From: a virus
IMG/VR virus record: IMGVR_UViG_3300033418_000001
Coordinates: 32,001 to 96,000 of that record
Length of the DNA stretch: 64,000 nucleotides
Direction: 5' to 3' (one strand)
Shown: positions 1,982-20,670 of the stretch, one piece after another
Position numbering within the stretch: position 1 is the first letter of the stretch
How the letters are laid out: the number at the start of each line of letters is the position of its first letter
Notes under the pieces: model-generated
Told to the model about the DNA's origin: nothing
The model's input: the letters and a program-made list of their open reading frames with translations, nothing else
Databases searched by the model: none
Translations under genes and position numbers: made by a program

Positions 1982-2008
1982 ACTGTCGCACACGGGGGTG
2001 CCACCTAA
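1982..2008 (-). promoter_or_regulatory. Putative late promoter (TTAGGT-N15-GACAGT)
   Basis: Matches motif shared upstream of scaffold, portal, zeta polyprotein and spanin genes. Confidence 0.4.
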
Positions 2009-2031
2009 CAAAAACTTCCGAACGTCTTAGC

Positions 2032-2047
2032 GTGCAGATGTCTGCAA
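2032..2047. repeat. 16-bp palindrome copy 1 (intergenic)
   Basis: GTGCAGATGTCTGCAA. Confidence 0.95.
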
Positions 2048-2052
2048 ACGCT

Positions 2053-2388: not shown

Positions 2389-2390
2389 GC

Positions 2391-2819
2391 TCAAGACGTG
2401 AGGATGATGGCCGTGGCCCACTGCTGCCGGTAGACGACAGCGTTGCCGATGGTCCCGGCGGGGCGCTCGCTGACGAAGCGCCACTTGTGGAACGAGGGGG
2501 AGGTCTGCAACCTGATCTGCTTGCGCGTCTCATCGAGGAGACGGGCCGCTTCGTTCTTTTGGTCGAGTCCACCAATGGCGTCGTTGGCGATGATGACCAA
2601 CACCGTGCAGGTCAGGTCCGCAGCCATGCCCTGACGCGAAGGGTCGAGCGAGTTGGCCGCGATACCACCGTAGACCACGCCCGCCATCGGGAACTTGGCA
2701 CCTTTCAGGGCAGCAATTAAGTCCTGCTCCGAGAGAACGCTGACGGTTTTCTCCGCGAACTCGGTTACTCGCATCACGCGAGTCATCAGGTCTTCCCAAC
2801 AGGCCACGGCGGTCGTCAT
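2391..2819 (-). CDS. Putative tail terminator/completion protein
   Basis: 142 aa; position between virion morphogenesis gene and tail tube. Confidence 0.55.
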   Translation of the reverse strand: MTTAVACWEDLMTRVMRVTEFAEKTVSVLSEQDLIAALKGAKFPMAGVVYGGIAANSLDPSRQGMAADLTCTVLVIIANDAIGGLDQKNEAARLLDETRKQIRLQTSPSFHKWRFVSERPAGTIGNAVVYRQQWATAIILTS

Positions 2820-2954
2820 AGTTGTCGATGCTCCTCAGACTGTTGACGATGGTAGGCCATGTCGTCGTACTGTGGTAGGCGTCACGGTTGCCGTACTCGT
2901 TCCACGTCCCCGAGGTGTCAGTCCACCCATGCAGGTGGAAGGTCGCCATGCCCA

Positions 2955-3410
2955 TCAGGCCAACCCCAGTGCCTCAGCCACGCGCTGCATCACGCGGGCT
3001 TCGAACAGTTCGATGTCGCTCTCCACCACGCCCAAGAACTCGCGCACCGGCAGGAACTTGGTGCCGTACTGGTGGAACTTGCCGTACTCCACGCCCTTCT
3101 CGTTCTCAGCCCCGGCCCTGATGGTGCGCTCGCCCGCCGGGTTGTCGTCGGTGAGTTGGATCGAGCGCCACAGCGTGCCGGTGTCGAAGAGGGTGCCCGT
3201 ACCGCCACCGCGTCGCCGCTTGATCGCTGCCTCGGAGGGAGGCCAGTGCTTGCCCTCGGGGTTCTTCTCCTCAAGGTAGCGCGCCCGGGTGTTGTTGAGG
3301 ATGATGCTCGCCGCCATGTCCAACACTTCTTCCACATCGAGAGCTTGATGCACGGTGTCCAACACCTGTTGGAGTTGGCCCGCGTCAATCTCGATGACAA
3401 GCGAAGTCAT
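2955..3410 (-). CDS. Phage virion morphogenesis / tail completion protein (Mu gpG-like)
   Basis: PEGKHWPPS...TLFDTGTLWRSI...YGKFHQYGT...PVREFLG motifs; start MTSLVIE. Confidence 0.8.
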   Translation of the reverse strand: MTSLVIEIDAGQLQQVLDTVHQALDVEEVLDMAASIILNNTRARYLEEKNPEGKHWPPSEAAIKRRRGGGTGTLFDTGTLWRSIQLTDDNPAGERTIRAGAENEKGVEYGKFHQYGTKFLPVREFLGVVESDIELFEARVMQRVAEALGLA

Positions 3411-4591: not shown

Positions 4592-5527
4592 TTAACCGAT
4601 GTTGCTGTAGGTCACCACGGCATCGGTTTCCTCGATGGCGTTGGCGATCCGGCAGGTCAGCACGATGATGTAGACGCGCGAGCGGATGTCCTTGTCGAAC
4701 TCGATGGTGACCTTCCGTTGGATGCCGAAGATCAGGTTCATCGGGTCGCAGAACAGGCCGCGAGCGGCGGGCATCAGCGGCACGCCTTGGAGTTGCGAAC
4801 CCCATGCGTAGACCGGCCCGGTGCCTTGGAGCATCGAGTCGCCGAGCGCCGTCTGCCGGTTGGCATACGTGTCACGGTACTCGGTGTCGTTGTCCACCGA
4901 AACGAAGTGGGTCAGGCGACCACGGTTGCGGAGGTACTTGTCGGGCATCGCCTTCACGCCCGCCTTCAGCACGTCCTTGGAGATGGTCGCGCCACCCGCG
5001 TTGACGACGTGGGCCGTCGCCTGCTTCAGGTAGCCGTCCATCATGGCAAGGTACGCATCGCCGGAGGTGCTGTCGCCGAGCAGGAGCAGTTCTTCCAGAT
5101 CGAGCGCCGCACGTTCCGCGATGAGTTGCGTGATGGTCTCCATCAGGCCACCACCGGACTCGCCCATCGAGGCGTTGATGCTGCCGCGCTCGATGTTGTC
5201 TTCCATCACGTCGTAGGGAATCCAGACTTCCGCGATGGCTTCCTTGGTCGTCAGGGTGATCTGCGACAGGTCGGGCTTGCTGCGCTTGTTGGACGCGAGC
5301 GCCGTCGCCGAAGTGGCGGCGTTCATGATCCGCGAGCCGAAGCCGATCTTGTTGATCTTCCGCGTCGGCGCGTTCATCGTGACCACGCGGGCCGCGTTGA
5401 GGATCGTCGGGCTGTCGATCAGGGTACGGATGAAGGTGTCGGTCATCTCGGGGTTGAGAAGACCACCGTTGTTCGTCAGGTCGGACAGCGCGATGTCCGC
5501 CTTCTGAAGCAGTGCTTGATTGTCCAT
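4592..5527 (-). CDS. Major capsid protein (HK97 fold)
   Basis: 311 aa; GGLLNPE..DTFI, ERAALDLEELLLLGD, PMNLIFGIQRKVTIE; follows scaffold, followed by terminator. Confidence 0.9.
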   Translation of the reverse strand: MDNQALLQKADIALSDLTNNGGLLNPEMTDTFIRTLIDSPTILNAARVVTMNAPTRKINKIGFGSRIMNAATSATALASNKRSKPDLSQITLTTKEAIAEVWIPYDVMEDNIERGSINASMGESGGGLMETITQLIAERAALDLEELLLLGDSTSGDAYLAMMDGYLKQATAHVVNAGGATISKDVLKAGVKAMPDKYLRNRGRLTHFVSVDNDTEYRDTYANRQTALGDSMLQGTGPVYAWGSQLQGVPLMPAARGLFCDPMNLIFGIQRKVTIEFDKDIRSRVYIIVLTCRIANAIEETDAVVTYSNIG

Positions 5528-5564: not shown

Positions 5565-7163
5565 TTACCGGCGCACAGCGGAAGCCGCAGCTTGCCGCTG
5601 CGCGTAAGACTTCTGTACCCGCACGTCCTTCTGGAAGGCCGTGTCGATGATGCCGAGGGATTCTTGCTTCTTCACCGGGGTGGCCGGTTGGCGGTCGTCG
5701 GCGGGGACGCCGCCGATCATGGTGCCGTTGGCCACGACGGCGGCAGTGGTCTCGGCCTTTTGGGCCGTCGCCTTGACGCTCGCCACTTCCGTGGCCAGAT
5801 CGCCAACGCTCTTCGTGATGAGCGCCATGTTCGCGGCCATCTCGGTGAGCATCTTCTGCACGTTCGCATCCATGGCCGGGATCGTAACAGCCGCGTCACC
5901 TTCCTGAGATGCGTCGTCCTTCTTCGCCGGGAAGGGCTTCTTCGGCGCAGCCGCCGGGGCCGCAGCCGCCGGAGCAGCGGCGGGCATCGCCTTGGCCGGT
6001 GCATTCGGGTCCGCCGGGACCGAGGGCGCCGCGTTGGCATCGGCGGCGGGCGCTGCCGCAGCCGGGGCCGAACCTTGGGCCGCAGCGTTCACCGTGGCCT
6101 TCTCGTCGGGCGTCATCTTGGTCCATGCGTCTTCGTCCACGCCCTCGGGCGCTTCGCTGCCATCGTCGCCTTCTTCCGCCGGGGGCATGGCGGCAGCGGC
6201 GGGCGCGGCGGGGGCCGCAGCGGCAGCAGGCGCAGCCGGAGCAGCAGCGGCAGGCGCCGGGGCGGCGGCAGCGGGCTTCTTCGGCGGGAACGCCTTCAGC
6301 AGCAGTTCCATGCGGCTCGCGTCGGCCTTCAGCACCTTGCCTTCACCACCGCACGCCTTGCACCCCTTGGTCTCGCACATCGGGCAGTCCACCGGGGCTT
6401 CGGCCTCGGCCTTGGCCACTGCCGCAGCGTCGAGCGCCGCCTGCGCGGCCATCTTGCGCTTCTTGCACGCCTTGGCCACGATGGCTTCGGCCTTGAACGC
6501 CACCTCGGGCAGAGCCTTGGTCAGGCGGTCCACGTAGCCGGTCAGGCGCGTGGCCTCCACCGCCGTCTGCATCGGGTCGGCGTCGGACTTGAGCGCCACT
6601 TCCGCGCCGTCGAGAGCTTCCGTGCGCGACGGCAGGAAGCCCATCTCCTCGTACAGCGATTCGAACGGCGTGCCCTTGACGATGGTCTCGGCGTCGAGGC
6701 CGGTCACCAGTGCGAGCATCCCGTCGTTCATCTTGACCACGACGGCATCCCCCGGCTCCGTGTCGCCTTGGGCGAACAGCACGGTCTCGTCATCGTTCTC
6801 GATGGCGTTGTCGGTGGTCACGCCGATGGCGGCAAGTTCCGCCTTGTCTTCGTCGGTGAGGTCGCCCTTCTCCACGACGATGCCCGCGAGCAGCACGGGC
6901 GCCGGGTCGGCGGGCTTCACTTCGGCGTCCTTGGCGACGATGACCTGACCACGCGATTGACGCGGCGTGTCGCCATCGGCCTTGAGGACGTTGCGGATGT
7001 CGCTCAGGTCGAGCTTGCCGCCGAGGTTGATCATGTCGGACTCCTGTTGGGGATGTTGCTTGACGATCTTGAAGGGGAGGCGATTGGCGCCGCGCGTCAC
7101 CAGACTGATGAACTCAGCGGTGCCGTTCTCCAACTTGTTCACTTCCAACTTGACGCGGGCCAT
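5565..7163 (-). CDS. Capsid scaffolding protein with N-terminal protease-like segment and Pro/Ala-rich linker
   Basis: Directly upstream of MCP; N-term EFISLVTRGANRLPFKIVK; CxxC-x3-CxxC; PAAA tracts; C-terminal coiled coil. Confidence 0.7.
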   Translation of the reverse strand: MARVKLEVNKLENGTAEFISLVTRGANRLPFKIVKQHPQQESDMINLGGKLDLSDIRNVLKADGDTPRQSRGQVIVAKDAEVKPADPAPVLLAGIVVEKGDLTDEDKAELAAIGVTTDNAIENDDETVLFAQGDTEPGDAVVVKMNDGMLALVTGLDAETIVKGTPFESLYEEMGFLPSRTEALDGAEVALKSDADPMQTAVEATRLTGYVDRLTKALPEVAFKAEAIVAKACKKRKMAAQAALDAAAVAKAEAEAPVDCPMCETKGCKACGGEGKVLKADASRMELLLKAFPPKKPAAAAPAPAAAAPAAPAAAAAPAAPAAAAMPPAEEGDDGSEAPEGVDEDAWTKMTPDEKATVNAAAQGSAPAAAAPAADANAAPSVPADPNAPAKAMPAAAPAAAAPAAAPKKPFPAKKDDASQEGDAAVTIPAMDANVQKMLTEMAANMALITKSVGDLATEVASVKATAQKAETTAAVVANGTMIGGVPADDRQPATPVKKQESLGIIDTAFQKDVRVQKSYAQRQAAASAVRR

Positions 7164-7185
7164 GGATTTCCTCAGCAGTGGGGCC

Positions 7186-7211
7186 ACTGTAGCAACGTGG
7201 CCCGCACCTGA
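7186..7211 (-). promoter_or_regulatory. Putative late promoter (TCAGGT-N14-TACAGT)
   Basis: Shared motif upstream of scaffold/capsid genes. Confidence 0.5.
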
Positions 7212-7215
7212 CAAC

Positions 7216-7233: not shown

Positions 7234-8709
7234 TCATCCGAACAAGTTGCGCTTCAGCACCATGAGCAGGTCGCCCTTGCGGGTGATCAGCTTGGCGATG
7301 AGGCGCACGCGCTTGGTTATCGGATCGAGGAACTTGGTGGTGCCGGTGTTGATCAGTTCGTCGGGCGTGGTGTGGTAGGTCTCGGTCAGCTTCTTGTACT
7401 GGCGCTGCCCCAGATCGAGAACCTTGGCCAAGCCCTCGTTGGCCTTGCCGCGCTCCATGGTCACTTCGACCGCGCCTTCCTTCTCGTTCCACGACACACC
7501 CTTGTACTGCGACCCCACCATGCCGAGCGTGAACTTGGGCAGCACGCCCGACACCTCGGACACCGCGCTGCTGTACGCGGCCTTCAGTTGCGGTGTGAGG
7601 TGGTCGGCCTTGTCGATGTTGGCCCGCATCAGTTCCTTGGCGCTGCCCACGTCGATCTTGCCCGCGCCGAGCTTGACCAACACCTCGATGTTGCCCGGGA
7701 CGTGGCGCAGCATGGGCGGCATCTTCTCCTTGTGGAACAGGGCGAAGTTGTCCGCCGTGCTGAAGGCGGAAATCTCGGGCCTGCGCTCCCAGTCCACAGC
7801 GGGCGAGTCGTGGGCGCCGATCATGTTCGATGCGAGCGTCACCCAGTCCTTGCCCATGCTCTTCTCCAACGTCGGGGCAAGGTGTTCGTTGAAGTATTGC
7901 TGCGACCACCGGGGGTGATCGTTGTCGAGGAAGTTGCGCGCCGGGGGCGTGAGGTAGCCCATGTCGTGCGTCGCCGCGACCACGCTCATCAGCAGGCGGT
8001 TGCCCGGGGTGTTCACGTTCATGGGCAGCACACCGAGGATTTCCTTGGCCATCAGGGCGTCCTGCCGCAGGTGGAAGCTGCCGTGGTCACCGAGCGTGCG
8101 CGATGCGGCCTCGTAGTCCTGCGCGATCACCATGCGGGCCAGTGCGTGTTGCAAGTGGCCTGCGTCCTCTGCCGACATGCCTGCGGCGAGCGCATCCACG
8201 TGCGCTGCGCCCACCAGTTCCTTGATCGCCTGTTGGTTGTCGGGCGGCAGGATGTGCGCGTAGCCCTTCACGTAGTCGTCCAACGTGGTGAAGGGCTTGT
8301 CGGGGCCGAGCAGTTCGTTCATGCGCGCGGGCACCGTGTTGCGCGGGTCAGCCAAGCCGTCCCGATGCTCGCGGGTCAGCTTGTTGAAGGCCGGGTTGCG
8401 CTCCATGATGTCCATCTTGCTGAAGTCGTCCATGGTGGCAGGGCCACCGGGCGCCGCAGTGAACTGCCCGCCGATCTGCGTGCCCTTCGGCTCCCTCGGG
8501 TGCGCTTGCTCGTTCCACCCTTCGGCCTTCTGCGTGCCCATGGGGATGCGCTGCGCCTCGGGCAGGTAGCCGTTGATCAGCCGCTTCATGGACTCGGGCA
8601 CCGCCTCCATGCTCTCGATGCCGCGACACTCGCCCACCAGTGGCCACGCCACCTCGGGTGGCATGTTGGGCGCCGCGACGCGCAGGTACGCACGCAGTTC
8701 AGGGTTCAT
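7234..8709 (-). CDS. Tagged putative virion cargo protein with HD phosphohydrolase domain
   Basis: Tag QKAEGWNEQAHPREPKGTQIGGQFT; DHGSFH...ATHDMGY...DHPRWS...AHD...AD HD-type motifs. Confidence 0.65.
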   Translation of the reverse strand: MNPELRAYLRVAAPNMPPEVAWPLVGECRGIESMEAVPESMKRLINGYLPEAQRIPMGTQKAEGWNEQAHPREPKGTQIGGQFTAAPGGPATMDDFSKMDIMERNPAFNKLTREHRDGLADPRNTVPARMNELLGPDKPFTTLDDYVKGYAHILPPDNQQAIKELVGAAHVDALAAGMSAEDAGHLQHALARMVIAQDYEAASRTLGDHGSFHLRQDALMAKEILGVLPMNVNTPGNRLLMSVVAATHDMGYLTPPARNFLDNDHPRWSQQYFNEHLAPTLEKSMGKDWVTLASNMIGAHDSPAVDWERRPEISAFSTADNFALFHKEKMPPMLRHVPGNIEVLVKLGAGKIDVGSAKELMRANIDKADHLTPQLKAAYSSAVSEVSGVLPKFTLGMVGSQYKGVSWNEKEGAVEVTMERGKANEGLAKVLDLGQRQYKKLTETYHTTPDELINTGTTKFLDPITKRVRLIAKLITRKGDLLMVLKRNLFG

Positions 8710-10547
8710 TGGTTCGCCTCCATGATCAGCCGCAGGTAGCGGTCGCGCCGCTTCTTGTCCTTCATGTGCATGATTGCCCCGATGACGCCCTCGCCCTTGG
8801 TCCTACCGAAGGAAGAGGCGGTCATCACGTCCATCATTACCCGCCGGGGCACCACCAAGCCCATGTACTGATGATTCCATGGGTCGGGCACCGTGTGGTC
8901 CACCATGCGCGAACCCTCACGGTTCCATGCGTGGGCAAGGGGGATGCCATGCTCCGTGACGATGCCCTCCACGTAGTCTACGCGAGGGCTGTCGGGCTTC
9001 AGCATCGACTCCACGATCACGTCCACGCTGTTGTTGTAGCAGCGGTGGGGCGTGCGGATGTCGTCGCTGCCGTTCACCTCCATGGGCTTGCCGTAGCGGT
9101 GCACGAAGTCGAGACGCGGGGCATTGCCGTCCACCGCCTCGATGATCTTGCCGAGCAGGCTCTTCACCGGCTCGTCTTCGCTCACGTTGCCAAGCCGCGA
9201 CACGATGGCCAACGTCGAGATGGCGTTCATGTGCGGCGACATGCCCTCGATGGGCGAACGGTTCTTGTCCTTCAGGTAGGCGAACTCATCGGGGGCGTCC
9301 GCCACAGCGTTTTCACTGGTGGTGAACCTGCCCCTCTCGTCGTGGTTGGGGTTGAACTTCTTCACCTTCACGCGCTTCACCGCCTTGCCCGTGTGCGTGC
9401 GCCACTCGGACAGTGCGCTCACCTGATAGCCCATGGCCTTCTTGCTGCGCGGAGCGAACTCCATCAACTGAATCTCTTCGCGCTTGGTCTGCCCCAGTGC
9501 AATGAGGTTGGAACTGAAGAACAGCGGGTCGAGTTGCTTGGTCACCGCTTCGCGCGCCGCGAGCCACTTCTTCAGGAACTCCTCACGCCGACGCTGTGCT
9601 TCCTCGGGCGTGGCATCCCGCTCCACCACCGCGAGGTTGCGATCCTTCAGCGTGTGCGTGACCTTCATGCCCTCAAGGTTCTTGCGCTCGCTCGCACTGG
9701 TGTTGTTGGTGCGCTTCCACTCCAACATCTCGTTGGTGAAGCCTGCGCCATACAACTCGATGACCTTGCTGTGCAGAGCTTCGTAAGCGCCGAAGGGCAC
9801 ATCCGTTCCCGGGTAGTTGCCCGCTCCGCTGCCGTAGTACAGCGCCATCTTCTCAAGGAAGCCGTCCTTGCGTGCCGTCTCCACCATCTGCTCTGTGGTG
9901 ATGTCCCCCGCCATGTAGTCGCGGGCGAGCAGCATCGCACTGTGGATGTCCTCGGCCACCTTCTTGTCCACGGCGAAGCTGATGGTGTCCGATGTGCCGC
10001 CGCCCAAGCCCACCCCAGAGGTCTGACTTAGCTCGTCGCGGGTCTTGAGGCCATGCTTGGCCACGTCGGTGGCCGCAGTGGTCACGTGGTACAGCTTGGG
10101 CGGCAACGGCTCATACGGACTCGATCCGTTGTTGCCATAGAAGCCGCGCGCCTTGGCCGTCTTCTCGTCAATGTCGCCCAAGGAGAGGGCTTCCGACGTT
10201 TGCCGCGTCCACTCGTTGTTGAGGGCACGCTTCTGCCGCATGGCGGCATCCACCCGATCCTGCAACTCAGGAGGTGCCTTGTCGTGGCTCAGGTACTCAT
10301 CGAGCAGGGCACGGTACTCGGCAGCGTTCTCCCCGGCGAAATCGGCCCGGGTCTGATCGTAGGCATGGGCGAACTGCCCGCCCTTGGGCGAGCCTGCGGG
10401 TTCGTGGTTGGGGTTGAACTTGAGGATTGCAGACATCTGCACACCCTCTTCGTCGTCCACGAAGGTCGCAGGCGTGTCCTGCCACGGCTGCGTCTTGTCG
10501 AAGGAGACCGAAGCGAAGAAGTCGTCCATCAGCGTGTCAGTCGTCAT
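8706..10547 (-). CDS. Two-module tagged polyprotein (ART-like domain + transglutaminase/papain-like domain)
   Basis: Tags ILKFNPNHEPAGSPKGGQFA and VKKFNPNHDERGRFT; LYHVT..GLK...ISFA...SEWR; RCYNNS...YVEG...AHAWN...VDHT; start MTTDTL. Confidence 0.6.
   Translation of the reverse strand: MTTDTLMDDFFASVSFDKTQPWQDTPATFVDDEEGVQMSAILKFNPNHEPAGSPKGGQFAHAYDQTRADFAGENAAEYRALLDEYLSHDKAPPELQDRVDAAMRQKRALNNEWTRQTSEALSLGDIDEKTAKARGFYGNNGSSPYEPLPPKLYHVTTAATDVAKHGLKTRDELSQTSGVGLGGGTSDTISFAVDKKVAEDIHSAMLLARDYMAGDITTEQMVETARKDGFLEKMALYYGSGAGNYPGTDVPFGAYEALHSKVIELYGAGFTNEMLEWKRTNNTSASERKNLEGMKVTHTLKDRNLAVVERDATPEEAQRRREEFLKKWLAAREAVTKQLDPLFFSSNLIALGQTKREEIQLMEFAPRSKKAMGYQVSALSEWRTHTGKAVKRVKVKKFNPNHDERGRFTTSENAVADAPDEFAYLKDKNRSPIEGMSPHMNAISTLAIVSRLGNVSEDEPVKSLLGKIIEAVDGNAPRLDFVHRYGKPMEVNGSDDIRTPHRCYNNSVDVIVESMLKPDSPRVDYVEGIVTEHGIPLAHAWNREGSRMVDHTVPDPWNHQYMGLVVPRRVMMDVMTASSFGRTKGEGVIGAIMHMKDKKRRDRYLRLIMEANQ
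10427..10442. repeat. 16-bp palindrome copy 4 (coding, VQMSA)
   Basis: TTGCAGACATCTGCAC. Confidence 0.95.
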
Positions 10548-13500
10548 GCTTCTTCCTCTTGGTCTTCTCCTTGCCCGCCCACCGCCCCCACACCGTGGGG
10601 TCGATGTAGCTGCCGAGAGCCACCATGCGCGTGTTGCCCAAGTGCTTGGACACCACGTCGCCCACGTGCACCCGGGCCTTGCGGTACTCGGCCTCGGTGG
10701 CAGGCTCGCCAATCTCCTTCAGCACCTTGAGCGCAGTGTACGTGCCATGCCACGTGCGAAAGTCCTTGGCCGAGAACGGTTGGCCCGTCACATCCTTCAG
10801 GTACTTGTTGACGCGCCCCTCGTTGGTGGCGAACAGCCGCTCGTCCTTGGTGGTGTGTCGCTTGCGGTTGCGAATGTACTGCGCGAGCAGCATGTCGTTC
10901 AACTCATGGCTCTGCATCACCGCGTGCTTGCCGGGGAAGTTGAAGGTGAGCTTAGTGCCCGACACCACCACGTGCCGATCCAACAGCGTGGACGCGCCGT
11001 AGGCTTTGCCCTTCTTCGTTTCGAACTCGTTCTCGCCGCCAACGCGGAAGCCCGTCTTCGACATCAGGCGCACTACTGCCGCCGTGTCCCGCTCCGCTTG
11101 CGTCTTCCCACTCAGCATGTCGTCGTGCGAGCGCCGCCGCAGCAACGGCATGGCCCCGTTGAAGTCCTTCAGGCGCGAGAACTTCTCCGCTGCGTTGCTG
11201 CCCATGGCCTCGGCGCTGTAGCGGTACTGCAACTTGCCATTGCGCGCAGTCCACGTGGCCTGCAACGGCTCCGTGGGGTCGGGGTTGAGGTGCACGTTGA
11301 TCGAGGCAGGCGGGATGGCCATGCCCTTGAGGCGTGCAGCTACCGGCTCCGGCACCTCGCTGTGATCGCCACCATAGCGCCACACCTTGTCATCGAAGTA
11401 CATGCCGGTGCCCTGCCGCCATTGAGCGAACTGGCCCCCCTTCGGCGTGCCCGCAGGCTCGCGTGGGTGCTTGCTCTCATCGAACTTGAAGGCACGGTAC
11501 GCATCGCCAATCTCGATGAAGTATTGCAGCGGCATGGTGAAGTCGCACTTCGTGACCTTGCCACGGTTCTCAGCAATGATGCGTCGAGCCACCCGTTCGA
11601 TTTCATAGGCTTGATCCGTTCCCTCTGCTCTGCGTCCGAGCGATTCCAGATGATCGAAGACGGCACGTTCGAACTGCTCCATGCCGACAAGCTGCATCGC
11701 CCGGTTCATCGCTTCCACGGTCGGCAGTTCGTCGTGCCCCTCTTGCTGCTTCGCGTTCTGGGCGGTCGTGAACCTGCCACGTGCGTCATGGAACGGGTTG
11801 AACTTGAGGATGGTCGAGAATTGATGCTTCTGGGTTCGCGCTTGGTCGGAAGTCGTTGCAGATGTCTGCAATCGAATGCGATCCAGATGCTCCTTGAACG
11901 CCCGCCGGATGGCCTCGGGGCTGAACCCGTGCCGGGGGAAGGTGGTCATCGGCACCGATGCCACGCGCTCTGACGTGTGGCTGTCGTCCCGCGCCGGGAA
12001 CGAGTACCACACCGAGGGGAAGTCCTTCTCGTCACCTGCACTGCGCCCCACCACGGGGGAGCCATAGGTGCTGCGGTCGCGGATGGTCTCGTACTCGCCG
12101 AAGTGCTTGCCCAAGGTCACCTTGTACAGCGACACGTGACTGCCGAGCGTGTAGCCGCGCTCCGGCTGTTCGAAGTCGTTCATGTCGTCATAGAAGCCCA
12201 CCACGCCATCGGCATTGCCTGCGTTCACGCCTTGGAGGCTGTTGTGCTTGCCGCTGTCGATGCGATAGACGAGGAACGATTCGCCGGGTTGGGGCACGTT
12301 CCATGAGCCGTCCGCGTTCTGCCGCTCCTCTTTGAAGCCGGGGCCGATGCCCGCCTTGTCCACGATGGGTGCAGGCGGGGGGAAGGCATCGCTGTACGCA
12401 GGGTGGTCCTTGGGCAGGTACCACCGGGGCACCTTCTCCCACTGCGGGTTGCGGTTGCGGTCGCCTTCCTTGGGCGGGCCTTGGAACTCGGCGTACTTGG
12501 GACTGGACCCCTTCATGTACATGAGGTCGTGGCGCGTGGGGTGCGACCACGGGTTGGCCGCGTTGGTGGTCCACCGGCCCCACTCGTCGCGCGGCTGCAT
12601 CTCGTCGTACTTCTTGGCCGTGGGGAAGCGCGTCAGGTACGACGGGTCGCCATAGCCCGGGGACTGCTTGAAGCCGTGCCGCTTGTACCACGCCACCAAC
12701 TGGGCCTTGGTGAGTCCCTTGCCCTTGGCCCCGGCGTCGGGGATGGGCTTGGCGTTCAAGTCGATGGCCACGCCATGCTCGTCCGCCATCTGGGTAATCT
12801 CGCGCATCAACTCGGAGGCTTCGCCCTTGCCCTTGCTGCCGTAGCTGATGATCGAGGACAGGTGCACCTGATCCATGCCCTGCCATGGCGACATGTCGAT
12901 GCCCACGTTGCGACGCAGGCGTTGCCGATCATCGAAGGGGTGCGCTTGCGAGCCTTCGATCCACTCCTGCATGAAGGCAGTGGCCTTCTCGGTGAAGCGC
13001 CCGGTCTTCGGGTCGTGGTTGGGGTTCATCTTGGTGATGGCCGTCACCAAGCCCTCCCCGTACTGGAACATGCGCTTGAAGCCATGGCGACGCTTGCGCT
13101 TCGGGCCTTGGGCAGCAGGCAGGCGTCCGCCACGGTCGAGGTCGGCCTGTGCGAGGTCTTCCTTCTTGGTGCGCGGTTGGCCGCGAGCGAAGGTGTCGTA
13201 CTCGTTGAAGTAGTGGTCGAAGATGCCCTTGATGGACTTGATCGAGGTGCGACCGCTCTCGCGGATTTCCTTCGGCTTGTCGTGGCTGTAGGTGGCCGCG
13301 AAGGCTTCGGCGAACCACTCCCGGTCGTTGACCGCCGCGTAGGTGGAGATAGCGGTCTCGCTGTCCACCTCCTGCCGCAGGCGTTGGGTGAGCAGCTTGC
13401 CATTGCGCTTGGTGCGCTTGCCGAGGTAGTCGAGTTCGCCCTGTTCGAACGCCTGCACGTGGTGGCCGAACTCATGCACGAAGATGCTGCCCACGGTGTC

Positions 13501-14106
13501 GTTGCCGAGGGGGTGGTAGCCCGCCTCCTCCGCTTCCCGCAACTCCATCAGCAGCGATCCGGCCCGGGTCACCGGGGTGGTCAGCAGGTCGTCACGATGG
13601 CGCCCATCGGTGATGAGGTTGCTGCCCATGTCGAAGTAGCGCGGGTTGAAGCGCATGTGCCCGTGTTCCATCGCCGCCCATGCCCCGGCGTGGTTGCCGG
13701 TGGCCGCGAACACACTGTCGGCAGTCTCCTGCATCCCGATGGTGTCGAGCGCCGCGAAGGCGTCGGGATGGCTGTTGGCCATGCGGTCGATCTGCGTGGC
13801 CACTTCGCGCAGGGCGAAGGGGTGCATCCACTCCATGTTGCGGAAGGTGAGATGCGGGTGAGCTTCCTGCAACGCCTTGACGATGGCGTAGGCCGACTTG
13901 CCTTGGTACTTGTCGGCGACGAGGCCGCGCAGGTCTTGCTCGCTCTCGTAGCGGTCCACTGCTTGGCGCAGTTCCGCTTCGGAGACACGCCGGAAGGCGC
14001 GTTCGAACGGGGAGTCTAGGGCAGCACCGCCATGGCCCGCGAAGGTGAAGCGCCCATCCTTCGGATCATGATTCGGGTTGTACTTGAGGACGGACTGCCA
14101 GTCCAT
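10537..14106 (-). CDS. Five-module tagged polyprotein: zincin metallopeptidase, GNAT acetyltransferase, unknown, short helical, DNA topoisomerase IB
   Basis: HEFGH...EWFAEAF; KGKGEASELM...LVAWYKRHGF; GFRVG...FPGK...KDFRTWHGT...LGNT...SYIDP; five tags; probable start MDWQSVLKYNPNH. Confidence 0.8.
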   Translation of the reverse strand: MDWQSVLKYNPNHDPKDGRFTFAGHGGAALDSPFERAFRRVSEAELRQAVDRYESEQDLRGLVADKYQGKSAYAIVKALQEAHPHLTFRNMEWMHPFALREVATQIDRMANSHPDAFAALDTIGMQETADSVFAATGNHAGAWAAMEHGHMRFNPRYFDMGSNLITDGRHRDDLLTTPVTRAGSLLMELREAEEAGYHPLGNDTVGSIFVHEFGHHVQAFEQGELDYLGKRTKRNGKLLTQRLRQEVDSETAISTYAAVNDREWFAEAFAATYSHDKPKEIRESGRTSIKSIKGIFDHYFNEYDTFARGQPRTKKEDLAQADLDRGGRLPAAQGPKRKRRHGFKRMFQYGEGLVTAITKMNPNHDPKTGRFTEKATAFMQEWIEGSQAHPFDDRQRLRRNVGIDMSPWQGMDQVHLSSIISYGSKGKGEASELMREITQMADEHGVAIDLNAKPIPDAGAKGKGLTKAQLVAWYKRHGFKQSPGYGDPSYLTRFPTAKKYDEMQPRDEWGRWTTNAANPWSHPTRHDLMYMKGSSPKYAEFQGPPKEGDRNRNPQWEKVPRWYLPKDHPAYSDAFPPPAPIVDKAGIGPGFKEERQNADGSWNVPQPGESFLVYRIDSGKHNSLQGVNAGNADGVVGFYDDMNDFEQPERGYTLGSHVSLYKVTLGKHFGEYETIRDRSTYGSPVVGRSAGDEKDFPSVWYSFPARDDSHTSERVASVPMTTFPRHGFSPEAIRRAFKEHLDRIRLQTSATTSDQARTQKHQFSTILKFNPFHDARGRFTTAQNAKQQEGHDELPTVEAMNRAMQLVGMEQFERAVFDHLESLGRRAEGTDQAYEIERVARRIIAENRGKVTKCDFTMPLQYFIEIGDAYRAFKFDESKHPREPAGTPKGGQFAQWRQGTGMYFDDKVWRYGGDHSEVPEPVAARLKGMAIPPASINVHLNPDPTEPLQATWTARNGKLQYRYSAEAMGSNAAEKFSRLKDFNGAMPLLRRRSHDDMLSGKTQAERDTAAVVRLMSKTGFRVGGENEFETKKGKAYGASTLLDRHVVVSGTKLTFNFPGKHAVMQSHELNDMLLAQYIRNRKRHTTKDERLFATNEGRVNKYLKDVTGQPFSAKDFRTWHGTYTALKVLKEIGEPATEAEYRKARVHVGDVVSKHLGNTRMVALGSYIDPTVWGRWAGKEKTKRKKHDD
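11856..11871. repeat. 16-bp palindrome copy 5 (coding, LQTSA)
   Basis: TTGCAGATGTCTGCAA. Confidence 0.95.
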
Positions 14107-14284
14107 AGGTCTTCCCACCGGGTTGGGGTTCGTAACGGACCCCATTATCGCCCGCAGCGGGGAACCTGTGATCGAACGAGTTCATCAGGATGGTGAGGGG
14201 GATGCCGTGAGGGAACGCCGCGCAGTTGAAGGTACCCCTTTGCAGATGTCTGCAACCCATGCACATGGGCACGCCACCGATCAT
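14066..14284 (-). CDS. Small Cys/His-rich protein
   Basis: CMGCRH...CAAFPHGIP..ILMNSFDHRFP..GDNGVRYEP, a pattern I associate with phage head-morphogenesis loci. Confidence 0.6.
   Translation of the reverse strand: MIGGVPMCMGCRHLQRGTFNCAAFPHGIPLTILMNSFDHRFPAAGDNGVRYEPQPGGKTYGLAVRPQVQPES
14240..14255. repeat. 16-bp palindrome copy 6 (coding, CRHLQ)
   Basis: TTGCAGATGTCTGCAA. Confidence 0.95.
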
Positions 14285-14871
14285 GACGTGGCCTCTTCCC
14301 ACAGCACCTTCTCCACGTAGCTGAAGCGATGGTTGTGGCCGAGGGAAGATTCGGTCACCGTGCCGCGCTTGATCACATGGCTGTGGCCATCGGCAGCGGA
14401 TGAGGTGCGCCCGCCGAGGAACTGGCCGTTGTCGTCGTAGGAGACGAAGAACTCATGGTCATGGCCATCGTCGGCCTTGGCCACAAGCCCGCTGATCACC
14501 GGGGGTAGTTCCACCGTCATGGTGGCCTTCTCCCGGGTGACGAGGGCTTCCATCGAGTAGCCGTTGATTTCGCCCTTCTTGATCATCGACCACACGCCCT
14601 TATCGGGGATGTGCATCCCCACCACCCATGACCCCTTGATGAAGTCGGGGTCGCCCTTGCGGGCGATGAAGGACTCGATGATGTAGGCGTTGACGAGCTT
14701 GTTGTTGTGCTGAAGGTCGATGCGATCCGTCTTGCGCTCGCGCATGAACTTGTAGGCCATCTGCTCGATGGCCGTCTCGGTCATGATGTCGCCGTCAGCA
14801 TCGGGGATGTTGGGCGCGTAGACCTCGGCCCACACCATCTGTTGGTCTTCCGACGCAAGCTTGAGGTCCAT
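14281..14871 (-). CDS. XkdF-like putative serine prohead protease
   Basis: VWAEVYAPNIPDADGD...IEQMAYKFM...IDLQH...IIESFIA...GSWVVG...WSMIKKGEINGYSME; His-rich C-terminus. Confidence 0.85.
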   Translation of the reverse strand: MDLKLASEDQQMVWAEVYAPNIPDADGDIMTETAIEQMAYKFMRERKTDRIDLQHNNKLVNAYIIESFIARKGDPDFIKGSWVVGMHIPDKGVWSMIKKGEINGYSMEALVTREKATMTVELPPVISGLVAKADDGHDHEFFVSYDDNGQFLGGRTSSAADGHSHVIKRGTVTESSLGHNHRFSYVEKVLWEEATS

Positions 14872-14873
14872 GG

Positions 14874-15578
14874 TCAGTCCCACCAGAGTCGCAGCACGGA
14901 ACCCTTCCACTGGCGCCCCGAGGGGACGAGAGCCTTCGGCCCGCCGCCATGGTACTTGTCCACGTCCTCTTGCGTGAGGAAGCGTTCCCCCGGCTTCACC
15001 ATGTCGATTTCATCGGCGCGCGTGCTGCGCTTGGCGAGCTTGGCGATTTCCTTCAGCGCCCGCTCCGGCCCATGCACGTAGACCACGGGCGACATCTCAC
15101 GCCCCGGGGACACCTTGATTTCGTCGTTCCACTTGGCGAGGAAGTTGGCGACGCGGTTGGTGTTGAAGGCGTTGTACCCGCCCGGGGTCGCCGTGCCCAT
15201 GGTGTTGCGGAAGGCATCGACCGACATCTCCTTCTCGGCCACGAAGCGCAGCTTGTGGGTACGGTACCCGTCGATGATGTCCCGCCGGTCCTTGAACTCG
15301 CGGTACATGCCACGCGGGTCAGTGGCGGGCTTGGGTTGCGCGGCGGCAAGCTGCCCTTCCGTGGACATGCCATTGCGCGGACCCATCTTCGGCGGGGCCG
15401 TGTTGAAGCCGAGGCCATCGTGGGTGTCCCCGGTAGATCGAGCGTGTTCCGCTGCCGGGTTGGCAGCGACCGGGCCTTCGAAGTCGGCAGCAGCGGCAGC
15501 GCCGCCGTTGCTCGTCGTGAAGCGACCATCCGGCCCGTGGTTGTGGTTGTACTTGCGGAGGCGGAAGAAGTAGTTCAT
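14874..15578 (-). CDS. Tagged hypothetical protein (putative internal virion protein)
   Basis: N-terminal LRKYNHNHGPDGRFTT. Confidence 0.7.
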   Translation of the reverse strand: MNYFFRLRKYNHNHGPDGRFTTSNGGAAAAADFEGPVAANPAAEHARSTGDTHDGLGFNTAPPKMGPRNGMSTEGQLAAAQPKPATDPRGMYREFKDRRDIIDGYRTHKLRFVAEKEMSVDAFRNTMGTATPGGYNAFNTNRVANFLAKWNDEIKVSPGREMSPVVYVHGPERALKEIAKLAKRSTRADEIDMVKPGERFLTQEDVDKYHGGGPKALVPSGRQWKGSVLRLWWD

Positions 15579-15590
15579 GGTCGCGCCCCC

Positions 15591-16424
15591 TTACCAACCC
15601 ATGGCGCGAAGCTTCTTCGCGTTCTTCTCCTGCGCGGGCGACATCTGCACCTTCTGCCACTTGTCGCCCATCTTGGCGTGCGTGATGTCGTGGGTGTAGA
15701 CCGAACCCATCTCGGTGTAGGTGCCGTAGACGGTGGCGAGGCGGATGTTGCCCTTCTTGTTGTCCTCCATGCGGGCTTCCCACCCGTTGCGGAGCTTGAT
15801 GCGCGTGCCGCGCTTGATGTCGTTGGCGTAGAGCGCCGCCGGGGCTTGGGTGCCCTGCGCGGTCTGCGTGGACGCGGAGTGGCCCTGCGTGCCCGACGTG
15901 AGGCCCGTGCTGCCCGAGGCGTTGTCGCCGTCCGTGGCCTTGTTCTCGCCCGAGCGCGGGCCACCGGCATCACCGATGGCGCCCACGTCGCCGCCCGAGG
16001 GCGTGCCCTTGTTCTCGCCCGAACGGGTGCCCCCGGCGTCCTGCCCCGTGATGGCGGCTGCGGAGGTCAGGGCGTCGTTCTGTTGGGAGACGGCGGGCGT
16101 GCCCGCGTTCTCGCCGCTGCGCGGGCCGGAGACCGAGCCACCGGGCTTCGGGCCACCTGCCGGGATGGCCTTGTTCTCACCGCTGCGCGTACCGCCTGCG
16201 TCCTGCCCGCTGACCGACGTGGCCGGGGCCGGAGCCATCTTCACCGGGTCGGTGCGCGGGTCGCCGCCACGATTGGCCGAGGTGCCTTGGCTCTCGCCGG
16301 AGCGCGGGCCTTGGACCGGGGGCTGCGCGTTCTTGCCCTCGGTGCCTGCGGGCATACCGGAAGCGAAGCGACCATCCTTGCCATGGTTGGGGTTGTACTT
16401 CAGGACTTGCGCGAACTTGGTCAT
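15591..16424 (-). CDS. Tagged low-complexity repeat protein with small C-terminal beta domain
   Basis: N-terminal VLKYNPNHGKDGRFAS; five G[PT]RSGE[NS] repeats. Confidence 0.7.
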   Translation of the reverse strand: MTKFAQVLKYNPNHGKDGRFASGMPAGTEGKNAQPPVQGPRSGESQGTSANRGGDPRTDPVKMAPAPATSVSGQDAGGTRSGENKAIPAGGPKPGGSVSGPRSGENAGTPAVSQQNDALTSAAAITGQDAGGTRSGENKGTPSGGDVGAIGDAGGPRSGENKATDGDNASGSTGLTSGTQGHSASTQTAQGTQAPAALYANDIKRGTRIKLRNGWEARMEDNKKGNIRLATVYGTYTEMGSVYTHDITHAKMGDKWQKVQMSPAQEKNAKKLRAMGW

Positions 16425-16453: not shown

Positions 16454-16891
16454 TTACTTCAGGGGCTTACCGGCTCGATTCCACCGGTCGTTCAGGTCGT
16501 TCAATTCCTGCTTGTACTTGGCCCCGAGCGCGCGATCCGTCTGCGTCTTCGCCTTCTCGGGGGTCATGTCGATGCGGAACAACTGGTCTTCCAAGGTGCG
16601 CTTGCGATTCTGGTCCGCTTGGTACTCGATCTGAAGCAGCAACGCCTTCTGGGCGTCGTCCTGCTTCTTGGCCTGCGCCACCACCTCACCCTTCACCTGC
16701 TCCACCGCGTCGTTCTTCGCGTACTTGCGGTCGAAGGCTTCGACGGCGCCGAACGCCGAGGTCACCAAGCCCACCGCGATCCCGAAGAACCACACCAACC
16801 CCTTGACGTAGGGGTTGTCCCAGAGCCGTGCAGATGTCTGCAAATCGTCACCCATGGCGGTCATGGTAGCGTGGCCCTTGCCACCGATCAA
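16454..16891 (-). CDS. Membrane protein with coiled coil (holin/antiholin-like?)
   Basis: One hydrophobic helix GLVWFFGIAVGLVTSAFGAV then coiled coil; start uncertain. Confidence 0.45.
   Translation of the reverse strand: MIGGKGHATMTAMGDDLQTSARLWDNPYVKGLVWFFGIAVGLVTSAFGAVEAFDRKYAKNDAVEQVKGEVVAQAKKQDDAQKALLLQIEYQADQNRKRTLEDQLFRIDMTPEKAKTQTDRALGAKYKQELNDLNDRWNRAGKPLK
16828..16843. repeat. 16-bp palindrome copy 7 (coding, LQTSA)
   Basis: GTGCAGATGTCTGCAA. Confidence 0.95.
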
Positions 16892-18342
16892 TCAGGGTCC
16901 ACCAGTTCAGTCACGTCGTAGCCCTGCTCCCGCAGGAACGCCGCTATCTCGTCGTCAACGCCCGCTGCCACATCCACCTCGGTGATGCCCATCAGGGCCG
17001 CTGCCGCCAACCACTCCGTCAGCACATCCACCCATCGACCCCGACGTGCCCGCAGGGCGCGGATCAGCATCGACTTGCGGTAGTTGGTGAACACGAAGTC
17101 GAGGGCCGTTTGCAGGCGCCCCGCCTTCCTGCCGGTGTAATCGACACTGGCCCGCAGGCGTTCCGCCTCGGTGCGGTTGACGGCCAACGACATCTTCAGG
17201 CCATACGCATCGGAGGAGGCCGTGCCCGCCACCGGGTTGTACGCAACGTCCGCCATCTCCTGCGGCGGCAGGCCGGTGATCAGCGACAGCACCTCAGCCG
17301 GGTGCACCCCGGCCTCCTTGACCCACGTCCGCACCTCTTCCTCGGTGGCCTCGATGCCCAAGGTCTTGAAGGTCTCCACATCCACTTCGGACGGGGAGAA
17401 GTCGCCGGTCACATTCTCGGGGAAGGCGGCTTGGTAGCTTGGCGTGCGCCGGATGTCGGGCACCTCACCCACACGCACCAGTTGGCCACGGCAGTAGGGG
17501 TGGTAGGGCGGGATGTGCCACCCACGGTCCACGATGTCACGGGTGGACATCTCGCGCAGGGCTTCGACGCTCGCCTTGCTCTGCGACGGCCATGGTTGCA
17601 GCGTCTTCAGTTCCTCGGGGTTGTCGGTGCTGAGGGAGCGCAACAGCAAGCTGCGCGCATCGCTCACTTGGAACGTCTTGCCGTGCATCTCCTCGCACAC
17701 CGGACAGATGCGGTTGTCGAGTTGTTCGTTGATGGCGTACTCGGTCACGTCGAGCAGCGACGCCTCCTCGGTGAAGCCGAAGGCCGCGAGGCGCGTGGTG
17801 TGCAGGGCGCTGATCATCTGGATCATGCGCTGCGCCTCGTTGTTCACCGGGTTCTTGAACTCCACGTAGGGCTTGAGCAGCGTGGTGTCCTCGGCCTTGA
17901 ACAGCACGTTGCCTTCGGACTGCGCGAAGTTCGTACTCGGCTGCGACAGGTCGTACTCGCGGATCAGGGTGTACAGCTTGGCCCGCACCTGATCGCCCAC
18001 CGTGTTGACGATGGCGTTGGCGAAGCTTGCCGTGGTGCGCGCGGCGACGGACAGCAGTCGCTTGCTCTGCAATATCTTGGCGTCCTCGGCCTTGCCGCTC
18101 AGGCGCGACGCTCCGTACACCATCGAGGCGAGCGACACGTAGCGCACATAGTCCCGGGTGTGCCGGATGACGGGCGCCAAGTCGAGGTTGTCCACCATGC
18201 GCGTGGCCCCGAGGACATCGTTGCCCTTCAGGCGCAAATAGACAGAGGGCAAGATGTCTTCCGACACCTTGCCCCATGCCGCTGTGATGCGGGAAGAGAG
18301 CGAGGCTTCCAGTGACAGGAACGCCTCAAGTTTGACGCTCAT
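16888..18342 (-). CDS. MuF/SPP1 gp7-like head morphogenesis protein with C-terminal extension
   Basis: DNRICPVCEEMHGKTF...IPPYHPYCRG; directly after portal. Confidence 0.85.
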   Translation of the reverse strand: MSVKLEAFLSLEASLSSRITAAWGKVSEDILPSVYLRLKGNDVLGATRMVDNLDLAPVIRHTRDYVRYVSLASMVYGASRLSGKAEDAKILQSKRLLSVAARTTASFANAIVNTVGDQVRAKLYTLIREYDLSQPSTNFAQSEGNVLFKAEDTTLLKPYVEFKNPVNNEAQRMIQMISALHTTRLAAFGFTEEASLLDVTEYAINEQLDNRICPVCEEMHGKTFQVSDARSLLLRSLSTDNPEELKTLQPWPSQSKASVEALREMSTRDIVDRGWHIPPYHPYCRGQLVRVGEVPDIRRTPSYQAAFPENVTGDFSPSEVDVETFKTLGIEATEEEVRTWVKEAGVHPAEVLSLITGLPPQEMADVAYNPVAGTASSDAYGLKMSLAVNRTEAERLRASVDYTGRKAGRLQTALDFVFTNYRKSMLIRALRARRGRWVDVLTEWLAAAALMGITEVDVAAGVDDEIAAFLREQGYDVTELVDPD

Positions 18343-20633
18343 CAGTGCGAGTGATCCATCAGCCCAACGCAGCACCCCGCGAGTTCAGCGAGACCTTCAG
18401 CATCGAACGACGAACGCGCGAACGTGCTGTTGGCCAACACCGCATCGAACAGCTTGCGCTGCTCCTTGGGCAACGTCTCCACCTTCTGCACGATGGCACG
18501 CCGCAGTTCCTTGTCCATGCGCGGACCATCGCTCAGGCCAACCGCATTGGCCCATTGACCGGCGAGCAGCACGATGTCGTTGGACGTGAGGTCCGACTTC
18601 GTAACGGCTGACGACATCGCGCTGCTGCCCGTGCCCCCCGACGATGGAGTGCCTAGACCGGCAGAGAAGGGGTTCTTCGTCGGATCGCTTCCCTGCGCGT
18701 TGGGATCACCTCCTCCGAATGGCTTACCGGCTTGCGCCTCAGCCAAGGCTTGCTGTTGAGCTTGCGCCGCCGCCTCTGGATCGTAGGTAAGGCTGAGACC
18801 TGTGATCTGGTTGATCGTGTCGATGAGGTCTTCGGGCTTGATCTTGTCAGCCACCATCTCAAGCGACTTCAGTTGCAGGTCCACGTTCTTCAGAGTCGAA
18901 GGCAGTGACTTCAGGATGTACCGCTTTGCCCCGAGGGCACGGACGATGGTGTGGTTGATCTTTTCATCAAACTCCTTTCGTTCAGGGGCGAAGACTTGGG
19001 CCTCGGTCACCATCACCGCAGTGAGAGCCGTGGCGAAGTTGTAGTCGTCCGACTTGCCGAGGAAGATGGACGGGAGGCGGAAGGCGCCCCGCACATGGTT
19101 CTCGCACTTCTCATCGAACACTTGGAACATCGAGTCAGTGCCGTTGGCGCGGTTGTCGCCGAAGCGTTCCACGGTCACCTTCACCTGCCCTGCGCTGTCG
19201 AGCGAACCGGACGAGGACTGCGCCTCAACGACGGCTGCGCGATGCTTGTCCTTCAGATCGCCCCCCAGATACGCGAGGAGTTGATTCTTGACACTCTCGG
19301 CCAGTGCACCACCTTGAATGAAGATGATGGCCGGGGGCAGGCCACCGGCATCGAAGAAGTCCAGATTGAACTCCTCGGCCTTCCGTGACCCAAGGACAGC
19401 GGGGAGGTTGTTGATCCATCGCGGTATCCCGTAAGGTGTGGTGGCATCCTTGTCGCAGATGAAGTGCAACACCTCCGACGCGAGGTTCACCTTCTGCGTC
19501 CCATCGGCGTTGGTCAGGTTGGCGGGCCGCTCTGCGCCCGTGGCACTGGCAGGCCCGGGGGCCACGCCGTTGTCCATCTGCCGCTGCCGTTCCAGATCAC
19601 CCTTCAGCGTGAGCAGGGGCGTGCTGTCCTTGGCCTGCCCATGGGGAGCGCCCGGGTTGGGCAGAGGGAAGCCGGTCTGCCCCGGCGCATCGAGCCAACC
19701 GCCATCCTCGCGGCTCAGGCGACGCTCGCTGCCGAACTCCTTGTAGTAGATGTAGTTCGTGCCCACGCGCTGCACGTAGCGCCGCTCGCGCACCCAGATG
19801 TTGGCCTTGAAGGGCACGCCGTTGCGCTCGATGATCTTCTCCACCATCACCGGGTTGTCGAGCTTCACCAAGCGCATGGTGGAGGCATCGAGGTGGCGCA
19901 GGAAGACGATCTTGCCTTCTAGGTTGCGGATCACCTCAAGGTAGCCGTTGCCGGTCATCTCGATGTCCGCGCGCAGCTTGCGCCGCTGCGACACGAAGGA
20001 CTCGTTGGGGAACGGCTCCTTGAAGAACGCCTTGAGCATCGCCTTCTCGGCGAGGTCGGCAGGCGTCTCGGCGTTGGGGTCAGGCTCGCCCGTGGTAGGG
20101 TCCACTGCCATGGGTTCCTGCGGTTGCAGCGGGAACTCGGACGGCGGGTCCACGCCCAAGGTGGCATGGCGGGTCATGACCTTCGCTGCCGCTGCGGCTG
20201 CGGCCACCACGCCGGGGCCGACTTCCTTGGTCACCTTGACCTTGTTGGCTTGAACTAGGGCCGCTGCCGCCGCCGCACGTACCGTCGGGTCGGCAATGGT
20301 ATTGAAGTCCACCGGGGCGCCCTCCAAGGCCGGATGGGGCTGCGGTAGCTTGTCCTCCTTGTCCTGATCCTCGTCGGCAATCTCGTAGCCCGTGCCATCG
20401 ACGTTGGTCTCCATGGCATGGACGCACTGCATCAGGATGTTGTTGCGCGTGCACAGACGCTTCAGCACCAACGGGTTGAACGGCGGCATCAGCGCCGCGT
20501 TGGTCTTGGTGATTTCGTAGATCGAACTGAACTCGTCCTCCAACTCCAAGGTGTGTTGGATCACCACTTGGGTGTCGGACGCGATCTTGCGTCGGGCGAA
20601 GCTGATGCTTGAGCGGTTCTTGCGGACAGGCAT
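18342..20633 (-). CDS. Portal protein
   Basis: DIEMTGNGYLEVIRN...EVLHF...YGIPRW...NLDFFDAGGLP...VRGAFRLPSIFLGKSDDYNFATA; start MPVRKN. Confidence 0.9.
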   Translation of the reverse strand: MPVRKNRSSISFARRKIASDTQVVIQHTLELEDEFSSIYEITKTNAALMPPFNPLVLKRLCTRNNILMQCVHAMETNVDGTGYEIADEDQDKEDKLPQPHPALEGAPVDFNTIADPTVRAAAAAALVQANKVKVTKEVGPGVVAAAAAAAKVMTRHATLGVDPPSEFPLQPQEPMAVDPTTGEPDPNAETPADLAEKAMLKAFFKEPFPNESFVSQRRKLRADIEMTGNGYLEVIRNLEGKIVFLRHLDASTMRLVKLDNPVMVEKIIERNGVPFKANIWVRERRYVQRVGTNYIYYKEFGSERRLSREDGGWLDAPGQTGFPLPNPGAPHGQAKDSTPLLTLKGDLERQRQMDNGVAPGPASATGAERPANLTNADGTQKVNLASEVLHFICDKDATTPYGIPRWINNLPAVLGSRKAEEFNLDFFDAGGLPPAIIFIQGGALAESVKNQLLAYLGGDLKDKHRAAVVEAQSSSGSLDSAGQVKVTVERFGDNRANGTDSMFQVFDEKCENHVRGAFRLPSIFLGKSDDYNFATALTAVMVTEAQVFAPERKEFDEKINHTIVRALGAKRYILKSLPSTLKNVDLQLKSLEMVADKIKPEDLIDTINQITGLSLTYDPEAAAQAQQQALAEAQAGKPFGGGDPNAQGSDPTKNPFSAGLGTPSSGGTGSSAMSSAVTKSDLTSNDIVLLAGQWANAVGLSDGPRMDKELRRAIVQKVETLPKEQRKLFDAVLANSTFARSSFDAEGLAELAGCCVGLMDHSH

Positions 20634-20670
20634 GGATACTCCTCGATCAGCCTCGGTCACGGACGGGGTA

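Follow-up and report, generated by a model that had tools for sequence, protein, structure and literature searches.

A tag-punctuated polyprotein ending in a type IB topoisomerase in the head module of a phage genome

Here we describe a polyprotein gene (10537..14106, minus strand) in a 64,000-nucleotide stretch of viral DNA, referred to below as the window, which comprises bases 32001-96000 of the IMG/VR record IMGVR_UViG_3300033418_000001, a genome of 108,443 bp (complete per CheckV) with a G+C content of ~63%. The product consists of five modules, namely a zincin metallopeptidase, an AcrVA5-like mini-GNAT acetyltransferase, a fold weakly resembling ADP-ribosyltransferases (ART) and RES toxins, a small helical domain and a terminal type IB topoisomerase (TopIB), each preceded by a copy of a recurring peptide tag; the next open reading frame (ORF) begins with an acidic peptide and is translationally coupled to the TopIB. 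Viral relatives of the TopIB module point to a polyprotein that is carried as cargo in the virion, a reading of the sequences to which we assign a probability of about 0.7. Coordinates are those of the window, and the genes and protein features located below lie on its minus strand.

Architecture of the polyprotein

The open frame (translation table 11) extends upstream of the gene as given above to 14145 (10537..14145, 1202 aa), and residues are numbered here in this 1202-aa frame (P0001); subtraction of 13 gives the numbering of the 1189-aa protein that starts at Met14. The start at Met14 (14106), chosen in an initial annotation made from the letters of the sequence, is the likelier one, because the homologues P0003 and P0004 start at the same position, the ESM Atlas entry for the protein runs from residue 14, and a purine-rich GGTGGGAAGA is located 4-13 nt upstream of the Met14 ATG. 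The anatomy outlined in that annotation, with tag-delimited zincin, GNAT and two more modules ahead of a terminal TopIB in a head operon, was likewise borne out.

Module 5, the type IB topoisomerase (10540..11427), matches PF01028 at residues 982-1175 (3.5e-26; 92.4 bits, the cut-off being 23.7) and the Deinococcus radiodurans TopIB structure PDB 2f4q over 255 residues (936-1190; 5.1e-39), the latter alignment beginning at chain residue 39. Five residues, R1034 in GFRVG (codon at 11044-11046), K1073 in FPGK (10927-10929), R1130 in KDFRTW (10756-10758), N1171 in LGNT (10633-10635) and Y1180 in SYIDP (10606-10608), align with R137, K174, R239, N280 and Y289 of 2f4q, which we take to be the catalytic residues of the D. 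radiodurans enzyme. The R-K-R-N-Y set recognised in the initial annotation is intact in this alignment, is invariant in 10 aligned homologues that are 32-95% identical to the query module, and has Asn, the bacterial form, at its fourth position. The N-terminal domain characteristic of TopIB (PF21338) scores 20.3 bits here, under the cut-off of 27, and up to 50 bits in homologues. Judged by its identity and its complete catalytic set, the module is very probably an active enzyme.

Module 1 (13033..14046) is an anthrax lethal factor-like zincin metallopeptidase, with matches to ATLF (4.6e-5) and to lethal factor in the PDB (6.5e-4), an HEFGH motif at residues 224-228 (nt 13462-13476) and a third ligand, E280, in FAEAF. 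For module 2 (12613..12993), the AlphaFold2 model, with a predicted local distance difference test score (pLDDT) of 96.3, is that of a GNAT fold: Foldseek places AcrVA5 (PDB 6iuf), an anti-CRISPR enzyme that blocks Cas12a by acetylation, at the top (E 7.6e-5, TMt 0.81, root-mean-square deviation 2.0 Å), followed by GCN5, PCAF and TacT, and a profile search of the PDB also finds 6iuf (6e-4), identity to AcrVA5 being 21%. A G-K-G-E-A acetyl-CoA loop is visible in the sequence of this module, for which Pfam Acetyltransf_7 gives only 0.041. When modules 2-4 were compared with a representative library, 662 relatives were obtained; most of the top 150 cover module 2, and many relatives of that module are stand-alone proteins of 130-160 aa.

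The alpha/beta core of module 3 (11806..12570) is modelled with a pLDDT of ~90 and contains the conserved motifs VYR, NAGNA and YSFP. It has no Pfam match, its ESM Atlas scores (<=0.84) are uninformative, and neither module 3 nor module 4 has a Foldseek match below 1e-3. Weak structural matches in VIA-align, with MbcT (Z 5.7), ParT (Z 4.9), RES (Z 4.8) and diphtheria toxin (Z 4.1), are at their best all to ART-superfamily toxins, and on these models we regard module 3 as ART-like with low confidence. Module 4 (11473..11769) is modelled as a small helical bundle without a specific match.

The recurring tag

In its first copy (tag 1; residues 21-33, 14047..14085), seven residues past Met14, the tag has the form K-YNPNHD..GRFT. 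It recurs ahead of module 2 (tag 2; residues 372-384, 12994..13032), ahead of module 3 in the divergent form QPRDEWGRW (tag 3; residues 512-525, 12571..12612), ahead of module 4 within a linker whose low pLDDT indicates disorder (tag 4; residues 781-792, 11770..11805), and in a long form (KHPREPAGTPKGGQF) immediately ahead of the TopIB (tag 5; residues 892-906, 11428..11472). Short and long forms are one motif, since a hybrid copy (KYNPNHQPAGSPKGGQF) exists. A regular expression for the tag has 11 matches in the six-frame translation of the window, shuffled sequence giving 1.4 on average, and the tag heads or divides five further ORFs of the window (14874-15578, 15591-16424, 8706-10547, 7234-8709 and 30214-32544). 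It is absent from the portal, MuF-like, protease and capsid proteins and from ORF 5565-7214, and within the head module marks cargo ORFs only. Motif searches of the full-text literature returned nothing relevant.

Stand-alone homologues of the GNAT module carry the tag at residues 8-11, and the highest number of copies found in a single protein is 11, in one of 2764 aa. Metagenomic homologues of 1725-2764 aa (P0037, P0091, P0086 and P0013) hold 5-11 copies each, which in P0037 are spaced ~170-470 residues apart in the manner of beads on a string. Distant from the head module, ORF 30214-32544 is a second tagged polyprotein, with tags at residues 9, 350 and 521, a Zeta-toxin kinase domain (PF06414, 4.4e-14, residues 133-278) and a weak VapB-like match. 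The 491-aa ORF 7234-8709 has a long-form tag at residue 70 and not at its N-terminus, and is strongly conserved at two other loci (L002 and L011).

Relatives, acidic partner and head module

A scan of IMG/VR with the TopIB module matched 103 loci. At the nearest of them (34-66% identity) the TopIB is part of a large ORF or occupies an ORF of 310-400 aa, and in most the tag stands directly before it, both where the enzyme stands alone (L004, L009, L011 and L014) and where it is fused (L008, L010 and L017-L020). By comparison, the tag is found in none of 80 bacterial TopIBs (identity <=37%). In the phylogeny that the initial annotation had called for, no fewer than 29 viral TopIBs (29-33), mostly tag-prefixed or fused, form a clade of their own, with a support of 99 in FastTree and an SH-aLRT of 99 in IQ-TREE, separate from the bacterial TopIBs and from those of AT-rich and giant viruses. 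The same annotation had called TopIB unusual in tailed phages; this holds for cultured phages, in which tblastn detected only solo TopIBs (Bacteroides phage BS162P1, where the gene is sited outside the head module, and the jumbo phages PaBG, Lu11, NCTB and HRDY3), but not for uncultured ones, given the 103 loci. Megablast of the polyprotein gene against cultured phages gave zero matches.

Six members of the viral TopIB clade (L006, L013, L017, L019, L020 and P0007) are in-frame fusions of a portal protein and TopIB, some with extra domains: a Zeta toxin between portal and TopIB in L006, InPase in L019 and a 2H phosphoesterase in P0007. Because the C-terminus of the portal protein faces the capsid interior, these fusions put the enzyme in the particle. 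In L003 a single ORF joins GNAT, TopIB and Acb1; its match to MuF is weak (PF04233, 7.2e-4, under the cut-off), and phmmer pairs it with the MuF-like protein of the phage studied here at 3e-31. Elsewhere TopIB is fused to Acb1 or 2H domains (P0006, L015 and L018) to ART domains of the ART-PolyVal/DRAT type (P0003, P0008 and P0009) or to still other domains. The families most often met with in the 102 neighbour ORFs of 26 clade loci are Phage_Mu_F (11), portal (8), ADP-ribosyltransferase (6) and terminase (5); InPase, NUDIX and 2H also occur, and at two loci whose portals are close to that of the studied phage (L010 and L018) the TopIB ORF directly follows the portal gene. These portal fusions, the ORF of L003 and the tagged stand-alone genes beside portal or MuF genes lend strong, if indirect, support to the virion-cargo proposal of the initial annotation. 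We found no paper that links TopIB to the portal or capsid in phages.

The ATG of the ORF that follows the polyprotein gene (8706-10547) sits 11 nt ahead of the TopIB stop codon. Its first 37 aa (10437..10547) form the acidic partner peptide, of net charge ~-8, which the initial annotation had overlooked and which is followed by a tag (10371..10421) and then by the rest of the ORF. The pattern of this peptide (hydrophobic-acidic-acidic-F-F, V-x-F/Y, W-R and an acidic run) occurs after the TopIB at 24 of the 32 clade loci. It may be a separate ORF of 39-83 aa (L009, L013, L016, L019, L020, L021, L026 and L038), the N-terminal part of the following ORF with a tag behind it (L002, L006, L010 and L018) or an in-frame tail of the TopIB itself (L003, L015, P0005 and P0006), a kind of tail that is seen in none of the 80 bacterial TopIBs. 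A regular expression combining motif and charge detects the peptide at 13/32 clade loci, compared with 0/80 bacterial and 0/48 other viral loci. The strongest sign in these data that tags divide independent products is the acidic unit, which is free-standing in some phages and joined by a tag in others. We suggest tentatively, at slightly less than even odds, that the peptide is an inhibitor or chaperone of the TopIB.

In the genome studied here, the minus-strand order of the head module runs from the portal gene (18342-20660) and the gene for the MuF-like protein (16888-18375) through two tagged small ORFs to the gene for an XkdF-type prohead serine protease (14281..14910; PF14550, 1.6e-24; phrog_15223, 3e-73), which is the immediate upstream neighbour of the polyprotein gene. 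Downstream of the polyprotein gene lie two tagged ORFs, an untagged ORF of 549 aa (5565-7214), possibly a scaffold candidate, and the major capsid protein gene (4592-5527; phrog_1623, 1.7e-103). By capsid protein, the closest cultured phages are the Stenotrophomonas phages DLP_5, DLP_3 and Summit, at 61-62% identity (62% for DLP_5). Between its portal and XkdF protease genes, DLP_5 (L163) carries a ParB-like nuclease gene (1892-3232) and no tags; with a different enzyme in that place and no tags, it was rejected as a model for the TopIB cassette. From these gene orders, this part of the head module seems to accommodate varied cargo enzymes.

The window contains 19 copies of a palindrome, TGCAGAYRTCTGCA, where 0 are expected; most of these copies lie immediately upstream of a gene start. 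One copy (11857-11870) lies inside the polyprotein gene ~20 codons before tag 4, another (10428-10441) lies across the internal Met38 codon ahead of the tag in the ORF starting at 10547, and a third (14241-14254) lies ~135 nt upstream of the Met14 ATG. The initial annotation had linked a 16-bp palindrome to the TopIB as a possible cleavage site, a link we do not uphold: among 163 fetched loci, TGCAGAYRTCTGCA is present only in this genome (of which L001 is a part) and in its closest relative, L002, and being lineage-specific and absent from other TopIB phages it was rejected as a TopIB site. L002 has two copies within its own polyprotein gene, and the copies might mark internal promoters or old gene junctions. 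No integrase was found in the genome, and the record has no terminal repeats.

Packaging, target and wider meaning

Phage-type polyvalent proteins, described by Iyer, Burroughs, Anand, de Souza and Aravind (2017; PMC5512222), are predicted to be packaged and injected. The polyprotein resembles them in joining many unrelated enzyme domains, with an LF (lethal factor)-related zincin, a GNAT and, tentatively, an ART-type module, and in being encoded among late genes by MuF and portal. Two properties by which this class is recognised are found here: at least two unrelated effector domains including a zincin-like peptidase (zincin, GNAT and TopIB), and a late or virion gene placement beside MuF and portal, the latter also in relatives. 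It is probable, in our view, that the gene product is a phage-type polyvalent cargo polyprotein. What sets it apart is that the main text of the 2017 paper names no TopIB ('topoisomerase' occurs only in a reference title), no recurring tag and no acidic partner.

In the mechanism that we propose, the tags would load the polyprotein into the procapsid, mark cuts that release separate enzymes, or both; a role as processing or loading signals is probable. The XkdF prohead protease would be the likeliest processing enzyme, and the polyprotein's own zincin a less likely one. In phage T4, the internal proteins and Alt carry a capsid-targeting sequence that is cut by the prohead protease. The likeness lies in a short N-terminal peptide on enzymes with a head protease nearby, whereas the tag motif is unrelated to that of T4 and is repeated between modules, the protease is of XkdF type, and cleavage at the tags is presumed. 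Alt is summarised by Iyer et al. (2017; PMC5512222). Once processed, the modules would reside inside the capsid and exit with the DNA, whereupon the TopIB could act, without need of ATP or Mg, as a swivel for the entering genome, in the way that the poxvirus virion topoisomerase serves early transcription; alternatively, it might alter host supercoiling after delivery. The initial annotation had suggested that the enzyme might relax, circularise or protect the incoming genome. The translationally coupled acidic peptide may keep the TopIB from binding DNA, first in the producing cell and then inside the capsid, until release.

Vaccinia TopIB, a small type IB enzyme of the poxvirus/bacterial subfamily, is carried in the particle and acts at the start of infection. 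Unlike it, the phage module has Asn and not His as its fourth catalytic residue and is part of a polyprotein, and its packaging is presumed. The best solved relative, D. radiodurans TopIB (2f4q, 3m4a), shares the R-K-R-N-Y set and possibly the N-terminal domain; cellular TopIBs differ in lacking the tag (0/80) and the acidic partner (0/80) and in falling outside the phage clade. The phage-encoded solo TopIBs of the jumbo phages PaBG, Lu11 and NCTB are known from Iyer et al. (2021; PMC7824862), and those of jumbo phages and BS162P1 are stand-alone genes with 24-31% identity, a location outside the head module being shown for BS162P1.

Several considerations weigh against the proposed mechanism. 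Packaging, cleavage and relaxation are all inferred, for the protein studied here as for every relative; the capsid protein and ORF 5565-7214 have no tag-like motif, which bears on the specificity of the protease; the trees are unrooted and the clade groups were first set on FastTree; and a role for the acidic peptide is read only from its composition, coupling and conservation. Moreover, the host- or defence-directed modules fused to these enzymes (Acb1, AcrVA5-like GNAT, ART and Zeta toxin) fit a host target equally well, and that the main substrate is phage rather than host DNA is a tentative view, to which we give somewhat less than an even chance. A TopIB that is packaged and injected might instead relax the host chromosome, halting transcription or replication, or defeat a topology-dependent defence, and would then add to the host-directed effectors that polyvalent proteins carry. 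The company it keeps fits such a role, comprising the anti-CBASS protein Acb1 (P0006, L003 and L015), ART-PolyVal/DRAT (P0003, P0008 and P0009), a Zeta toxin (L006), InPase (L019) and, in the present protein, the AcrVA5-like GNAT, and polyvalent proteins are interpreted likewise by Iyer et al. (2017; PMC5512222). Yet DNA relaxation is not a known means of overcoming any defence system, and the portal-proximal position sets the enzyme beside the end of the phage DNA. We consider a host target rather unlikely.

The in-frame portal fusions, which locate the domain in the particle, bear on a different possibility, that of a late cytoplasmic enzyme that serves the packaging motor by relaxing phage DNA in its replicating or concatemeric form, with the tags as no more than flexible linkers. 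Such an enzyme would be co-expressed with terminase and head genes, and cultured phages have their solo TopIBs away from head modules (shown for BS162P1); however, stand-alone cargo ORFs conserve the tag at their very N-terminus, a place in which a linker would be purposeless, and we judge this account improbable. Site-specific processing of genome ends is more doubtful still. With vaccinia TopIB chemistry, 3'-phosphotyrosyl complexes can be trapped near DNA ends, which would permit covalent attachment near the genome end and the capping or joining of ends in a circularisation akin to TOPO cloning, and no tyrosine integrase was found in the genome; but there is no known end sequence or cleavage site, the record lacks terminal repeats, and the palindrome is not common to other TopIB phages. 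A catalytically idle DNA clamp, with a structural or DNA-anchoring role at the portal, is hardly credible given five catalytic residues that are invariant across 10 homologues at 32-95% identity. SPP1 gp7 and other MuF proteins are said to bind DNA at the portal, as such a clamp would. They count among the head's structural components (Iyer et al. 2017; PMC5512222).

We found no paper on the design of a head cargo polyprotein ending in TopIB, yet it recurs in many uncultured phages. That the patchy bacterial TopIBs stem from a viral TopIB group yet to be discovered was postulated by Forterre and Gadelle (2009; PMC2647321), and the phage TopIB clade is a candidate for that group. A fuller version, in which a dedicated tailed-phage lineage of TopIBs becomes part of the capsid (by tag-dependent loading or by fusion to portal or MuF), is silenced by an acidic peptide, released with the genome and identical to the postulated source group, is speculative and unlikely to hold in all its parts. 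Even so, the clade bears on the origin of the scattered bacterial TopIBs, and tag, TopIB and acidic peptide make up a small cassette that is tractable in vitro. Since the tag stands ahead of GNAT, Zeta-toxin and further modules too and reaches 11 copies in one protein, it is perhaps an address label of general use, by which foreign proteins could be loaded into capsids. If the TopIB is packaged as virion cargo, tailed phages would share with poxviruses the delivery of their own swivelase into the cell, and DNA topology would join the things that phages control in the first seconds of infection.

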